The position numbers and the translations under genes are program-made. From assembly GCA_963710605.1 (NCBI GenBank), contig CAVQBA010000007.1, forward strand, positions 448,001 through 512,000: DNA of 64,000 nucleotides, given 5' to 3'. The notes under the pieces are model-generated. The model was given only the letters and a program-made list of their open reading frames with translations. It was not told where the DNA came from and did not search any database. Each line of letters begins with the position of its first letter. Position 1 is the stretch's first letter. Positions 2,797 to 52,551 of this stretch are shown one piece after another. The DNA is from an uncultured cyanobacterium. GTDB taxonomy: Bacteria > Cyanobacteriota > Cyanobacteriia > Cyanobacteriales > Cyanobacteriaceae.

Positions 2797-3450
2797 ATGT
2801 TAGACAGTTGGCTATCTATTGTTAGTAAATATCGCCTCATTGCCGTGATTAGAACCGATAATGTCGCTGATGGAATCAAAATGGCTCAGGCGGTAGCCAA
2901 TGGCGGTGTACGTTTAATCGAAATTACTTGGAATAGTGAACAACCGTTGTTGTTAGTAAGTCGTTTAAGAGAACTTTTACCTGATTGTTATATTGGGGTA
3001 GGTACGATCTTATCTTGCTCTGATTTAGAATTATCGATCGATGCAGGGATACAATTTGCCTTTAGCCCTCATTTTAACCACGAATTAATTGACTTAGCTC
3101 ATAGCAATAATGTTCCCTTTATTCCGGGGGCGTTATCTCCAACTGAAATTATCAATGCTTTTAATTATGGTGCCAAAACAGTTAAAGTCTTTCCCATTAA
3201 ATCCGTTGGTGGAGTTGATTATCTGAAAAATATACTTGCCCCTACTCCTCACCTCAAATTAATTCCCACAGGTGGAGTTAATTTGACAAATGCGGCTGAT
3301 TTTATTCGCAATGGTGCTGTTGCAGTTGGTTTATCTAGCGACTTGTTTCCTCGTCAGTTAATTCTCAATCAAAACTGGGAAGAAATTACCAATAGAGCAA
3401 ACAAAATACAAACTCAATTGCAACAGTTAACAACGAACAATGAACAATGA
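2797..3450 (+). CDS. eda: KDPG/KHG aldolase
   Basis: LIAVIR, IEIT, GVGTI, VKVFP (Schiff-base Lys), PTGGV motifs. Confidence 0.9.
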   Translation: MLDSWLSIVSKYRLIAVIRTDNVADGIKMAQAVANGGVRLIEITWNSEQPLLLVSRLRELLPDCYIGVGTILSCSDLELSIDAGIQFAFSPHFNHELIDLAHSNNVPFIPGALSPTEIINAFNYGAKTVKVFPIKSVGGVDYLKNILAPTPHLKLIPTGGVNLTNAADFIRNGAVAVGLSSDLFPRQLILNQNWEEITNRANKIQTQLQQLTTNNEQ

Positions 3451-3541
3451 ATAATTAATAATTAATAATGAACAATTAGCTCATCCCTCATCTTTCATCC
3501 CTCATCCTTACTTTTAACTCTTAACTCTTAACTCTTAACTA

Positions 3542-5233
3542 TCAACTGATATTGCAGTCCATCATTCTGGAGATTAAAGTATAAATTCCTCGATCGAGAA
3601 TTCCTGAGATGGCAATACTTGGTAAATGACCTGAAGGAGATTGATCGGTATAATTTAGATCTTCGGTGAATAACCAAACTCCATCCACACACCATTCTAG
3701 TTTTTTGCCTAAAGCCTCCCAAGCTTTTTTATCATATATTCTTTTACCACCTAAACTAAGATAAATTCTTTTTTGAACAGAAAAACCAAACTTACCTCGA
3801 CTATATTTTACCCAGAGTTTATCGATCGTTTGTAAATCTTTACTGGGAAATTTAGCCATCGTTTTACGATCGATCCAAGCTGAATCCTCTTGCCCAGAAG
3901 CTTTCAACATTAAATTTTGAGTTTTTTGATCAGCTTCTTGCCATTTACGTTTATGAAGTAATTGTGCTAAAGGGCGATAATCAATTCCTACTTCTGAGAA
4001 AGAGGCTTTATCTGTTTTTTTCTTAGTCGATTTTTTATTTGTCTTTAATGGTGTTGCCTGTATCTGAGCAGAAGAAGAGTAATCTATTTGAGTAAGAATA
4101 TCATTAGACTTTGGTGATAAAGGTTCAAGATTAGTTTTTTCCAGATTATGATTCTCAAATCGAGTCGGAGAAAAAGGATCATATTCAGTTATAGTCGGTG
4201 TTTGCTTTACCTTAACCTCCTTTAATTCTGGTGGTGGTGATGATTGATCATTATCATTATTTGAAGGTATTGCACTCACAACCTCCTCATCAGTTGTTTG
4301 TGTTGTTAATTGCTCAAAAGAATCTTGAGTTTTTTTAGTAATTTGCTTATCAGAAGAAAGGTTTGATTCTGTTTTTTTATTTGATAAAGAATTAGAGCTA
4401 TAAAGATGTATTTCTTCATTTTCAGTTAGAAGATTAAGCCACTGTGCCACTGATTGAGGACGATTTTGAGGTTCTAATTCCATCCCCTTAAGAATAACCA
4501 AATTAGTTCTGTGACTAATATTTTGGTTATGTTGTCTAGGTGGAATTAAACCAATACCCTGCTGTCTAAATTGTGCAGGAAAAGGAACTTGCCGAGTTAA
4601 GAGATAATATAATGTAGCCGCTAAAGCATAGACATCTGTGTAAGCACCTCTTTTGGCTTTACGAGAATATTGTTCGATTGGGGCAAAACCTTCAGTACGA
4701 GAATTAGTATGCATCTGAGTTTTATCTTCAACAAAATCTCTAGCCAAACCAAAATCGATTAAAACAGCTTCACTTGTCTGGCTACGACGCATTATATTTG
4801 CTGGTTTTACATCTCGGTGCAAAATACCTTGTTGGTGAATATAATTCAAAGCACTTCCTACTTGATAGATATAACGAATTGCTTCAACTTCAGCAAAATC
4901 ACCTTGATTTTTGACTAATTTTTCTAAATTACCCCCATCTATATATTCCATAACCATGCACCATAAATTCTCTTCTTGGCAAACATCATTTACCTGAATA
5001 ACGTGTGTATGATTGCATTTAGCTAAACGAAAAGCCTCTTGAACAAATCTTTCTTGGTGTTTAGCAAAGTCAGATTGTACTTGTAATGCGGTGTTTAAAG
5101 TTTTAATCGCAACTATTTCATTTGTATTAACATCTTTTGCCTGATAAGTAATTCCAGCACCACCTACACCCAAAACTTTTTCGATTACATATTTACCTCT
5201 TTGAATAAGTTGTCCTGTTTTCCAATAACTCAT
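3542..5233 (-). CDS. Ser/Thr protein kinase with C-terminal GUN4-like domain
   Basis: GxGGxG, VAIK, HRDVKPAN, DFG, APIE; C-terminal IDYRPL...WQEAD...DLQTIDKLWVKYSRGKFGFSVQ...GHLP. Confidence 0.9.
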   Translation of the reverse strand: MSYWKTGQLIQRGKYVIEKVLGVGGAGITYQAKDVNTNEIVAIKTLNTALQVQSDFAKHQERFVQEAFRLAKCNHTHVIQVNDVCQEENLWCMVMEYIDGGNLEKLVKNQGDFAEVEAIRYIYQVGSALNYIHQQGILHRDVKPANIMRRSQTSEAVLIDFGLARDFVEDKTQMHTNSRTEGFAPIEQYSRKAKRGAYTDVYALAATLYYLLTRQVPFPAQFRQQGIGLIPPRQHNQNISHRTNLVILKGMELEPQNRPQSVAQWLNLLTENEEIHLYSSNSLSNKKTESNLSSDKQITKKTQDSFEQLTTQTTDEEVVSAIPSNNDNDQSSPPPELKEVKVKQTPTITEYDPFSPTRFENHNLEKTNLEPLSPKSNDILTQIDYSSSAQIQATPLKTNKKSTKKKTDKASFSEVGIDYRPLAQLLHKRKWQEADQKTQNLMLKASGQEDSAWIDRKTMAKFPSKDLQTIDKLWVKYSRGKFGFSVQKRIYLSLGGKRIYDKKAWEALGKKLEWCVDGVWLFTEDLNYTDQSPSGHLPSIAISGILDRGIYTLISRMMDCNIS

Positions 5234-49740: not shown

Positions 49741-49844
49741 TTGTTTTCCCTTTCGGTATTTACCATCATAACTTATAATTTATTAGTTGACAACCCCCAA
49801 TCATGAGTAAGGAGTAAGGAGTAACAAGTAATGAGTAAGAAGTT

Positions 49845-51356
49845 TTAATTGTCCATTGTCAATTGTCGATCGTTCACTGCTGGATGTGCCTCCAATACAA
49901 ACTCGATCGGCTGAAGCCGGCGCTGCGCGATCGTCGAAGTGGGCTGTGCCGTAAGGAGATTTGAGGGGAATTGCCCGTCGAGATAAGTAGAAGAATCCCC
50001 CCTAGCCCCCCTTTGTAAGGGGGGAACAAGATCGTGGTCGTGGTTGTCAGTATGAGGTATCAGGGTATGATAAGTGTCTGTTTTTGTATTTTGAATTGCA
50101 TTGAGTATTAAGACGTTGATATCGGAAGGAAGTTTACGGATACCAGGGGCTATATGGTTCTTTAATAAGTCATAGGGGTGAGCTTGTTGGTCTAAATGTG
50201 AACCATCGTCCGAGAGGAAGGCAGTAAAGTTATCACCGACAAAGGTACGTCTGCCATTTTGATAACGAACATTTTTATCGAATTCTGAATAACCGTTGAT
50301 GAAGCCATAAAGGTGGGCAGTTTCATGGAGGATGGTGGTAAGCAGATCGTATTTACCATAGGCTTCTGAGTCAGGAGTTGCCAAAAATGCGAACTCCGAA
50401 TTCCGAATTGCGAACTCCAAATTCTCCATAGGAGTAGCGTCGATAAACCAGCCAACACCGTTAGCATCGTGGTCAATGGAGACGATACCAGCATTGGGTT
50501 TACCCTCTGAGTCAAAACCTGTGATAGTGGCTTCTGCTAGTTGTCCAGAGGGAAGATCTTTTATTTCATAGGTGATGTCGATGTTGGTTTGAGGTAAAAG
50601 GGTTGACCAGATATGGTTTACGCTATTATTGAGTTGGTTAATAGTTTGGAGATTTGAATTATGGATATCACTGCTGAGGAGTTGCTCAGAAGGTATAATG
50701 CTGGAGAAAGGGATTTCACTAATATATGTTTGCGTAGAATCAATCTTATCGATGTTGATTTGAGTGAGATTAATTTGAGTGGTGCTAGATTGGATAATAC
50801 TTGTTTGACCAGAGTAAATCTCGACCGATCTATTTTTGTTAATGTCTTTTTGGAAACCACTTTCTTTGATGAAGTTAGTTTGGAGAGAGCTAATTTGAGC
50901 GGGGTCAATTTGTACGGTTCTAGAATGAGACGGGTTAATCTCAAAAGGAGTAACTTGGAAAATATTATCTGGTATGAATCTTGGCTGGAAGATGTCGATC
51001 TTCGAGAGTCCAATCTGCGTGGTGCTGACATGGGAGAGATTTATCTTGTTGATTGCAACTTTCTTGGAGCTAGGATGGAGGAAATATCCTTTCTGCCTAT
51101 GAGAGAGAGAGTTATCATGCCAGACGGAACTATCATAACTGATGATTGGATTTTTACTAGTTAAATTCTCACCATACTGTGCATTTGTTTCTATTATTGA
51201 AAAATCGGCTAGAAGGTTAGAAGTCAATGGGGAACAAGAGACATGATTTTCATCTTCAATGATATTTTGAATTTCTTTTGGAAGATGAGAAAAGAAATTG
51301 TTACTTGTTAATTCTTCTAAATAGAGCTCGCTTGTAGGGTGCGTTCTATTAAACCG
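49845..51356 (-). pseudogene. Fragment of a large-protein gene: variable region, conserved QLAEATITGFD..GWFID block, HExxH motif
   Basis: Frame is open 49845-51356 with no ATG near its 5' end (track start is TTG 51227); LLTTILHETAHLYGF; 3' end dissolves into repeats. Confidence 0.7.
50661..51164 (+). CDS. Pentapeptide-repeat protein 1, nested antisense in the minus-strand frame
   Basis: ITAEELLRRYNAGERDF N-cap, xNLxx repeats, IMPDG C-cap; GGAG upstream of the ATG. Confidence 0.88.
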   Translation: MDITAEELLRRYNAGERDFTNICLRRINLIDVDLSEINLSGARLDNTCLTRVNLDRSIFVNVFLETTFFDEVSLERANLSGVNLYGSRMRRVNLKRSNLENIIWYESWLEDVDLRESNLRGADMGEIYLVDCNFLGARMEEISFLPMRERVIMPDGTIITDDWIFTS

Positions 51357-51527
51357 TTACATATTTAAGACCATCCCATATAATATAGAACGCACCACCC
51401 TTATTTATTCATTAACGATTTTTTGAGGTATTTGTGGTATGTTATTTAATTCCCAATCAGACGGATAAATTCCTCGAGCAATAAAGCACTAAGATATACG
51501 ATACATAAAATAAAAGCGAAACCCAAC
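51328..51527. repeat. REP-like cluster duplicated at 52290-52507
   Basis: TCGCTTGTAGGGTGCGTTCTATTAAACCG...CCCAAT and ACGATACATAAAAT.AAAGCGAAACCCAAC occur in both. Confidence 0.85.
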
Positions 51528-51539
51528 TGTATTGGTTAT

Positions 51540-52307
51540 GGAGTATTCATTATTATCTAATGGTGTATCGTCGATAAACCAGCCGACACCGTTAGCATTG
51601 TGGTCAATGGAGACTATACCTGCGTTAGGTTTACCGAAAGAGTCAAACCCTGTGATAGTTGCTTCTGCTAGTTGTCTTGTTGGTAAGTCTTTTATTTCAT
51701 AGGTGATGTCAATGTCGGTTTGAGGTAAGAGGGTTGACCAGATATTGTTTACGCTATTATTTAGTTGGTTAAGTGTTTAGATCTTTTTTGAATTATGCCA
51801 AAAAGAAGGAAAATTACTGCTGATGAATTGATTCGACAATATAATAGGGGGAACAGAGATTTCCGTCGGATTCGTATATGGGATTGGAGAAATGATGTTT
51901 TCAATGGTGTCGATCTTAGGGGTATTAATCTTGAAGATACTTTTATCGATATCAATCTAAGTGGTGCTATTTTGAGAAATGCTAATTTCAAAAATTCTAT
52001 CTGGGTTAGTGGAGACTGGCAAAATATTGATTTTACTGATTCCAATATGATCGGTGTTTCCAATGTGGATAGTTTCATCTTTACCCGTTGCGATTTTAGT
52101 GGAACTGTTTGGAGTAACGTCAAATTTTTTCAGTCTACTTTCGTTGACTGCAATTTGAGCTTCACTGATTTTGATAACGCCAGTCTTGTCGAAGTTGATC
52201 TTTACGGTTGAATTGTTTGTATTAATTAATGTAATATTATTTGCTTGAGATAATTTTAATGGTTGAGCTAATATATTAGTGCGATCGTATCGCTTGTAGG
52301 GTGCGTT
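51540..52307 (-). pseudogene. Second, degraded copy of the minus-strand frame (two in-frame stops)
   Basis: Hand translation keeps register through NQLNNSVNNIWSTLLPQTDIDITYEIKDLPTRQLAEATITGFDSFGKPNAGIVSIDHNANGVGWFIDDTP; stops at 51777-79 (TAA) and 51957-59 (TAG). Confidence 0.75.
51795..52211 (+). CDS. Pentapeptide-repeat protein 2, nested antisense
   Basis: ITADELIRQYNRGNRDF N-cap, xDFxx/xNLxx repeats. Confidence 0.85.
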   Translation: MPKRRKITADELIRQYNRGNRDFRRIRIWDWRNDVFNGVDLRGINLEDTFIDINLSGAILRNANFKNSIWVSGDWQNIDFTDSNMIGVSNVDSFIFTRCDFSGTVWSNVKFFQSTFVDCNLSFTDFDNASLVEVDLYG

Positions 52308-52551
52308 CTATTAAACCGTTACATATTTAAGACCATCCCATATCATATAAAACGCACCACCCTTATTTATTAACTAACGATTTCTTGAGGTATTTGTGGT
52401 ATGTTATCTAATCCCCAATTAGTGAGATAGAAGATATTGTAGGGAACGGTTAAGCCTCGCAAAGATTAATATACACACGATACATAAAATGAAAGCGAAA
52501 CCCAACAACCGACTATCTACTAGCTCGTAATGAGAATCGGGAATATAACGA

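Follow-up and report, generated by a model that had tools for sequence, protein, structure and literature searches.

A conserved antisense overlap in cyanobacteria: a pentapeptide-repeat gene nested in codon register within the predicted linker of a large exoprotein gene

The window analysed here is a 64,000-nt stretch of the genome of an uncultured cyanobacterium (Cyanobacteriaceae; assembly GCA_963710605.1, contig CAVQBA010000007.1, positions 448,001 to 512,000). In it, a gene for a pentapeptide-repeat protein (PRP) on the plus strand (50661..51164, ATG start, 167 aa), recognised by Pfam family PF00805 and by matches to solved PRPs, lies within a minus-strand frame that is open from stop to stop over 503 codons (49845..51356). 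Both frames are open far beyond chance and the arrangement is recurrent: it is a two-strand coding arrangement conserved across cyanobacteria, wider than was first seen, and the window carries a partly decayed copy of it. We regard it as very probable that, cyanobacteria-wide, a PRP gene under constraint is nested in register within the linker of a large exoprotein gene, that the linker on the host side is disordered and kept free of stops, and that the host gene in the window is a truncated one. From the sequence evidence we infer that both strands are translated, and the host segment opposite the PRP gene, which is predicted to be disordered, would act as a linker.

Codon register and codon usage of the two overlapping frames

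Counted from a TTG codon, the minus-strand open reading frame (ORF) spans 49845..51227 and encodes 460 aa. Its codon boundaries coincide exactly with those of the PRP gene (offset 50661-49845 = 816 = 3x272), in agreement with a preliminary description of this DNA which had placed the PRP gene wholly inside the minus frame and in exact register. In this register a TTA, CTA or TCA codon on one strand reads as a stop codon on the other. Our recount of the PRP gene gave the same 21 Leu and 11 Ser codons as that description, with TTG 11, CTT 4, CTC 3 and CTG 3 for Leu and AGT 5, TCT 3, TCC 2 and AGC 1 for Ser, and thus zero TTA, CTA or TCA. Across the genome (3.93 Mb in 7 contigs, 33% GC), TTA represents 58.3% and CTA 9.1% of the Leu codons, and TCA 18.3% of the Ser codons (670,082 codons from ORFs of at least 300 aa). 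The chance test that had been suggested for the absence of these codons returned a probability of 6.3e-12 for finding none of them among the 21 Leu and 11 Ser codons under genome usage. Within the nested part, the minus frame itself has 9 Leu and 28 Ser codons, and the sole TTA, CTA or TCA codon among these is the TTA facing the PRP stop codon (P = 1.4e-7), whereas the 271 codons outside the nested part show ordinary use (TTA 6, CTA 1, TCA 7).

Two compositional causes of the avoidance were weighed and dismissed. That the PRP gene came from a GC-rich foreign source is countered by its otherwise AT-rich codons (AAT, GAT, AGA) and by the avoidance being frame-specific, with TTA present out of frame in the same gene, while a blanket avoidance of A-ending codons is at odds with the use of AGA, GAA, GGA, ATA and GTA. 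As a separate observation, in a second register a long open frame also faces each of the two PRP genes of the window (the second is described below) on the antisense strand (50618-51031, minus strand, 137 aa; 51761-52123, minus strand, 120 aa), which is probably a composition effect of the repeats.

The nested gene recurs at the same position across cyanobacteria

Related loci were fetched via the minus-strand metzincin-like domain alone: back-translated patterns gave 262 matches, of which tblastn confirmed 149, and from these the best 80 were retained. The record titles of these loci name Pseudanabaenaceae, Phormidesmis, Leptolyngbya, Chamaesiphon, Acaryochloris, Xenococcus, Waterburya, Crocosphaera, Calothrix, Rivularia and Nostoc, and the loci derive from both metagenome-assembled genomes and isolates, with a GC content of 38-55%. 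Of these 80 loci, 70 contain an antisense ORF in register that has 100 aa or more and an ATG no more than 60 nt from the domain boundary, usually at offset -3, and these ORFs read as PRPs with an EELLxRYAAGERDF N-terminus; in a phmmer search, 69 antisense ORFs at the domain boundary were PRP-like. The ten misses consist of three that are short (L009, L058, L073), one cut by the locus edge (L052), one of 93 aa (L079), and five loci lacking an ATG at the boundary (L023, L039, L060, L067, L068). The expectation that a nested antisense PRP gene would recur at the same position, tested here through the minus-strand domain, was therefore borne out in 70 of 80 loci.

Codon counts cover 68 of the 70 loci, a motif filter having dropped L053 and L055 although their sequences look like PRPs. 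Beyond the nested part, the host frames of these loci encode 38.5% of Leu and 15.3% of Ser by TTA, CTA or TCA, a usage under which about 714 such codons would be expected in the PRP frames; the PRP frames contain no TTA, one CTA and one TCA among 1496 Leu and 901 Ser codons. With the exception of L077, all of the 68 loci (67 of 68) have a host frame that stays open across the whole PRP gene. The earlier proposal of present or recent selection on both strands is upheld by the recurrence and by these open host frames, and the frequent stops in the minus frame of homologs that had been named as evidence to the contrary were not encountered in these loci (67/68 open).

Two further observations were made on these loci. 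One of them (L001:1040-2500) carries three tandem PRP genes (150-152 aa) with near-identical N-termini, all antisense within one open host linker. In addition, a non-PRP antisense ORF of 100-330 aa recurs on the minus strand at about 2830-3600 in many loci (for example L017:2839-3429 and L033:2824-3414), where it faces the HExxH domain and what follows, with translations that are alike in many loci; a shadow ORF, arising from a conserved coding region of higher GC content, is the probable explanation.

The pentapeptide-repeat frame is the constrained reading

In frame-blind DNA alignments of 25 independent locus pairs, the differences per site at PRP codon positions 1, 2 and 3 were 0.273, 0.212 and 0.377, respectively. 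Position 3 exceeded position 1 in 24 of the 25 pairs (the exception being L019/L041), and amino acid identity was higher in the PRP frame than in the host frame in all 25 (overall 0.599 vs 0.497). A protein-guided set of 15 pairs gave 0.247/0.177/0.375 for the nested part, and 0.256/0.191/0.426 was obtained for the non-overlapped HExxH domain, which served as control in the host frame. Since the third positions of the PRP vary most, the PRP is the constrained reading, and judged by these substitution patterns its frame evolves as is usual for a gene under purifying selection. The host frame in the nested part changes chiefly at its own first positions, which are the third positions of the PRP, without gaining stops, and this segment seems only to have to remain stop-free.

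The pentapeptide-repeat protein

The PRP of the window, with its tandem repeats of the A(D/N)LXX type, matches PF00805 with an E-value of 3e-23 (81.4 bits, cut-off 20.2), and PF13599 and PF13576 likewise score above their cut-offs. Among solved PRPs, sequence matches were obtained to HetL (All3740, 3du1; 2e-15), where the match begins at query residue 6 and covers the N-terminal helix region, and to the cyanobacterial Np275/Np276 proteins (Np275-276, 2j8k; 3.8e-15), with weak matches to Qnr (3pss) and to the 2bm4 entry. HetL has a role in heterocyst patterning, and nothing here ties the PRP of the window to that role. A helix motif, EELLRRYNAGERDF, stands at the N-terminus of the protein and an MPDG motif at its C-terminus, and these non-repeat features (the helix motif and T.MPDG) are conserved across relatives. 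A GGAG sequence is located at 50648-50651, 9 nt ahead of the ATG, and 42 of 70 loci carry a Shine-Dalgarno-like motif 5-18 nt upstream of the PRP start codon, compared with 141 of 700 control windows. The plus-strand ORF appears to be a genuine, independently translated HetL-like PRP gene. When eight nested PRPs were looked up in a collection of about 15 billion proteins, six were absent and the other two carried the NCBI name 'pentapeptide repeat-containing protein'. Since annotations mostly drop the nested gene, inventories of cyanobacterial PRPs are probably incomplete.

Architecture of the full-length host gene

Many host ORFs span the entire 5.5-kb locus (>1,800 codons). All five long host ORFs scanned encode, in a single frame, an Endonuclease_NS domain (PF01223), the linker, the HExxH domain, Big_9/cadherin-like domains and 4-6 PKD domains, and the nuclease domain is located upstream in the same frame in 47 of the 80 loci. 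The RGH catalytic motif of the nuclease is retained, with G151 and H152 invariant in 35 sequences. The nuclease match in L014 stops at 1903 and is followed by the PRP gene at 1943-2464 and by the domain boundary, placed by extrapolation at 2465, so that the PRP gene is essentially the whole of the linker. On a plasmid of Calothrix sp. PCC 7716 (L081), the host is one coding sequence of 30,984 nt labelled 'hypothetical protein', with the nested PRP gene unannotated. In this one annotated relative (L081 1-4977) the host coding sequence adjoins genes annotated as a toxin-secretion ABC transporter and a leukotoxin-secretion-like protein, which hints at export of the host protein by type I secretion.

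The linker and metzincin-like domain of the host protein

Relatives of the minus frame comprise 163 proteins at E <= 1e-3 among 3208 candidates, and the alignments with P0004 (44% identity) and P0027 (40%) traverse the segment that is antisense to the PRP gene. A period-5 run rich in S, T, Q and I or V precedes the folded domain in all 11 relatives read, and mostly ends in a stretch resembling SF.SSIS.EQFFSSH, which, when the genetic code is read by eye, is the codon-wise complement of M..EELL.RY..GERDF. In the window, the corresponding 'anti-pentapeptide' segment (50661..51164, minus strand), rich in S, T, Q and I and of period 5, coincides with the PRP gene. The segment had been postulated in the preliminary description and does exist; it is predicted to be disordered, however, and is the less conserved of the two readings. 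AlphaFold2, run with 50 aligned sequences, assigned residues 1-191 of the 460-aa ORF a predicted local distance difference test score (pLDDT) of 25-40 and no secondary structure, and residues 192-382 a pLDDT above 90, with the first helix starting at residue 189.

The minus frame does run on into a well-formed HExxH domain, as had been noted from the letters alone: residues 189-382 of the 460-aa ORF (50082..50663, minus strand) form a metzincin-like metallopeptidase-fold domain by prediction, with the HETAH motif at 50313-50327 in the part with pLDDT above 90. His189 (50661-50663), its first residue, is encoded by the complement of the PRP ATG and is invariant in the 50 aligned sequences. For residues 188-381, the predicted fold was similar to leishmanolysin (1lml; Z 12.0, rmsd 3.1 over 163 residues) and to matrix metalloproteinases (MMPs) and karilysin (2xs4; Z 8-9 over about 121 residues, 20-23% identity), with weak Foldseek E-values (best 3.7e-3), and no Pfam family matched the 503-aa minus frame at E <= 0.1. 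Metzincins carry a His at the third ligand position of HExxHxxGxxH. The domain of the window resembles leishmanolysin, MMP catalytic domains and karilysin in its predicted fold and its HExxH motif, but departs from them by the lack of a curated Pfam match and by an Asn at the third-ligand site (HETAHLYGFIN), which is Asp in many relatives. Among the 50 sequences, H305 shows no variation and H301 and E302 almost none, and the nearly invariant H344 of a downstream DGSHLD motif could be an alternative third zinc ligand.

The host gene in the window is a truncated derivative

In the window, the host gene is a truncated derivative of the large exoprotein gene and one of about 27 module copies in the genome. 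It retains the tail of the nuclease, the linker and the metzincin-like domain, followed by junk sequence, and the PRP gene within it is intact. We call it truncated on three grounds: only the tail of the nuclease is left, homology to its paralog P0002 ends at residue 413, and the sole in-frame start upstream of the domain is the TTG at 51227. No ATG, GTG or TTG occurs in the minus frame from this TTG until an ATG at 50429, already within the domain. The remnant of the nuclease is the C-terminal end, the last ~25 residues, of an Endonuclease_NS-type domain (51243..51320, minus strand; LEELTSNNFFSHLPKEIQNIIEDENH), which matches the end of the L014 nuclease domain in pairwise BLASTP (E 1e-5) and agrees with the consensus of the nuclease alignment (A4). 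At the other end, a dispersed short repeat of ~40 bp (49989..50031, minus strand), read in frame as PPLQRGARGD, has blastn copies at C6:868392, C6:687986, C7:332404 and other positions. It occupies the same place in P0002, and in-frame strings such as PLTKGG... and PPRIGGLGG in relatives of other species resemble it. The homology to P0002 stops just past this repeat, and P0002 extends for another 337 aa with Ig-like domains, while the ORF of the window ends in a non-homologous C-terminal tail that is predicted to be disordered (49845..49988, minus strand), the C-terminal domains of the relatives being absent. Directly after the minus-ORF stop there are heptamer-type tandem repeats (49799-49843), with many similar arrays genome-wide by blastn, which we take to resemble the short tandem repeats of heterocystous cyanobacteria.

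Codon avoidance follows nesting, and module copies are numerous in the genome

The genome contains 49 PRP-like ORFs, of which 23 have 0-2 TTA, CTA or TCA codons, 24 have at least 11, and two are intermediate (3 and 8). A conserved module block (about 50511-50716 in the window), consisting of the start of the HExxH domain and the first ~19 PRP codons, has 27 matches in the genome, 18 of which have an intact PRP gene (at least 95 aa). All 18, matched by coordinates, belong to the 0-2 class and make up 18 of its 23 members. The avoidance by stand-alone PRP genes that would have told against the two-strand idea is therefore present on the surface (23/49), but mostly in carriers of the module block, and the 24 ORFs with at least 11 of these codons do not share it. 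The same 24 of 49 led us to discard the notion that PRP genes in general have an open in-register antisense frame. A Tolypothrix genome has two PRP genes with the same N-terminal motif and no HExxH remnant, in which 12 of 36 and 22 of 40 Leu codons are TTA or CTA, and three further PRP genes with 0-2 of the codons, one adjoining a remnant and two without one detected within about 2 kb. The nested PRP gene of L042 contains no TTA, CTA or TCA. Taken at the level of codon counts, the avoidance goes with nesting and not with being a PRP. For a tandem pair at C6:565797 and C6:566574, the count of zero such codons against a roughly estimated 2.5 expected was not significant.

The in-register antisense frame is fully open over the PRP gene in 12 of the 18 intact module PRPs, and only two of the 12 retain at least 200 host codons on the domain side (the window with 271 and C6:183405 with 300). 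In the decayed copies, either the decay of the host is very recent or some constraint persists. Many HExxH-domain remnants in the genome hold in-frame stops, and the only nuclease-domain match is at C5:276195-276818. The HExxH-domain paralogs differ mainly at third positions, for instance 23/16/66 at positions 1/2/3 against P0002, and among the PRP genes of this genome position 3 was the most variable in 16 of 16 comparisons, which indicates that selection acted through most of their divergence.

A second module (51489-52422) follows the first in the window and is, as a whole, more decayed. It contains a metzincin-domain remnant of 95 codons (51489..51776, minus strand; 79% identity to domain residues 3-88, with one TAA inside the match) and, with this remnant directly upstream, a second PRP gene of the same module family (51795..52211, plus strand, 138 aa; PF13599 1e-15, PF00805 1.8e-14), which has one TTA, CTA or TCA codon and an in-register antisense frame that is broken after 54 codons. 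A conserved element is found 3' of the module PRP genes at 51321-51490 and again at 52290-52422. Copies of the 51321-51490 element are 93% identical at C2:137712 and C7:500290, and 93% over 95 bases at C6:184129. Within the element there are an inverted repeat (perfect over 12 bp, loop of 35 nt) and, on the plus strand at 51356-51384, a site resembling a promoter. Across the collected loci, the identity of the PRP and that of the adjacent HExxH domain were discordant in several pairs (88% vs 66% for L014/L035, 72% vs 94% for L048/L051 and 69% vs 88% for L075/L080), which is suggestive of either an exchanged PRP-linker segment or rates that differ greatly.

A proposed explanation and its alternatives

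We propose that the host linker would tolerate almost any stop-free sequence, which would make the overlap affordable, and that the linker's need to lack stops would in turn force the PRP gene never to use TTA, CTA or TCA. As a speculation on its origin, two same-strand genes may have been fused by read-through across an intervening PRP gene on the opposite strand. For the role of the PRP, our leading guess, which is weakly held and drawn from analogy, is that it would be a dedicated cytoplasmic partner of its exoprotein, a DNA-mimic guard holding the Endonuclease_NS domain or the protease domain in check until export; we judge this rather unlikely to be correct. A complex prediction for the nuclease domain (A4) with the nested PRP (A3) scored 0.00 against a mark of 0.32, was run without controls and is evidence in neither direction. 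If the guard idea were true, encoding on opposite strands would enforce co-inheritance and head-on transcription would couple expression, giving a toxin-immunity-like pair on the two strands of one DNA stretch, which could diversify by swapping or tandem duplication of the cassette (compare the triple PRP genes of L001).

Several results weigh against the explanation put forward here. The open antisense frames in 12 of the 18 module copies, just two of which keep a long host, are not explained by it. A simple sigma-70 scan found no promoter-like site upstream of the PRP gene on the plus strand, and over 50300-51600 yielded 2 sites where 4.2 were expected by chance. The disorder prediction may stem in part from poor alignment of the repetitive region, position 3 exceeds position 1 by a smaller factor in the nested part (1.38) than it does in the control domain (1.66), and the most diverged locus pairs are near saturation. 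Furthermore, about 25 loci carry the PRP gene without an upstream nuclease domain, which weakens the idea of a nuclease guard.

Two alternatives would make only one of the strands real. It is extremely improbable, in our estimate, that the PRP gene alone is real and the minus ORF a shadow ORF or gene-caller artefact, with the metalloprotease-like gene starting elsewhere. The single TTG start at 51227, the blank Pfam result for the minus ORF and the abundance of non-PRP antisense ORFs (170 of 248 antisense ORFs of at least 100 aa) are in line with such an artefact, but there is no ATG, GTG or TTG from the PRP gene to the middle of the folded domain at which that gene could start. The in-frame nuclease upstream in 47 of 80 loci, the Pfam domains flanking the linker in all five long ORFs, the 2 avoided codons against ~714 expected, and the normal use of these codons by the window's minus ORF outside the nested part likewise contradict it. 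The converse, in which the large minus-strand protein alone is real and the 'PRP' is an untranslated mirror of a period-5 linker, draws on the antisense of a pentapeptide pattern being again of period 5 and on annotations mostly omitting the nested gene (absent for 6/8, and unannotated in the Calothrix plasmid). We hold it to be highly improbable, since in 24 of 25 pairs the greatest variation falls on the PRP third positions, which are the first positions of the host, and all 25 pairs have the higher identity in the PRP frame. Moreover, the ATG is invariant, Shine-Dalgarno-like motifs are enriched, the non-repeat helix and MPDG motif are conserved, and PRP genes stay intact where the host has decayed (16 of the 18 intact genome PRPs are without a long host ORF).

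The other two alternatives accept both strands and concern the state of the window and the force that keeps the frames open. Both genes of the window may still be functional, with the 460-aa minus ORF a working short form and not a relic; this is possible, though on balance we find it unlikely. The 503 open codons, the intact HExxH motif, the confident fold, the mostly third-position differences among the domain paralogs and the similar length of relatives such as P0004 (460 aa) favour it, and are offset by the TTG-only start, the junk C-terminus after the dispersed repeat, the absence of the downstream domains of P0002 and the plainly decayed adjacent module copies. Quite improbable, in our view, are recombination cassettes, with PRP/linker segments swapped among host paralogs and second-order selection keeping the donor frames open. 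Several copies do have conserved blocks (about 50511-50716 and 51321-51490) on either side of a variable repeat region, the identity of the PRP disagrees with that of the metzincin-like domain in locus pairs (L014/L035, L048/L051), and antisense frames stay open in copies with a dead host. Against this, no recombination event was traced, the discordance can also be explained by rates or paralogy, and the PRP genes behave as ordinary selected genes. We retain a constrained PRP gene nested in a stop-free host linker, with a truncated host in the window, as the preferred explanation.

Significance and comparison with known systems

The arrangement is retained in very different cyanobacterial lineages with a very large statistical signal (2 vs ~714 codons), and it shows how an overlap can be affordable, with a constrained gene placed opposite a linker, predicted to be disordered, that must only avoid stops. 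The register also lets a change that is synonymous in one frame put a stop in the other, and reciprocal knock-outs should be possible.

Whether bacteria have long antisense overlapping genes is still a matter of dispute. Embedded antisense genes have been reported as olg1 and olg2 in Pseudomonas aeruginosa, described as evolutionarily novel (PMC8850804), as pop antisense to ompA in E. coli O157:H7 (PMC7103648), and as laoB in the same E. coli serotype, described as having arisen by overprinting (PMC5810103). Those genes are, as here, complete ORFs wholly antisense inside another coding sequence, are likewise usually dropped by annotation, and have a case built on open frames and purifying selection. 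The published long antisense examples that we found are young and narrowly distributed, with a fold that is not known, whereas here both partners carry recognisable domains. Unlike the novel olg1 and olg2 or the overprinted laoB, the embedded gene is here a member of an old, widespread Pfam family and the better-conserved partner, and in contrast to those published embedded genes the host supplies a linker predicted to be disordered and the pair recurs from Pseudanabaenaceae to Nostoc. A proteogenomic study of Nostoc 7120 (PMC8557916) describes novel genes opposite existing genes, none of which is linked to PRPs in the available passages, and its supplementary tables could bear on this point. 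In the papers that we searched on pentapeptide repeats and antisense or overlapping genes, we found no description of nested antisense PRPs.

The closest functional parallels may be pairs of an effector and its inhibitor, if the guard idea has merit. NucA and NuiA of Anabaena form a nuclease-inhibitor pair, and MfpA and Qnr are PRPs that mimic DNA. As in pairs of the NucA/NuiA type, an Endonuclease_NS exoprotein and a small, cytoplasmic-looking protein come from the same DNA in the arrangement described here. In known toxin-immunity and nuclease-inhibitor pairs, however, the partner gene is adjacent and on the same strand, whereas here the PRP gene is antisense inside the host ORF.

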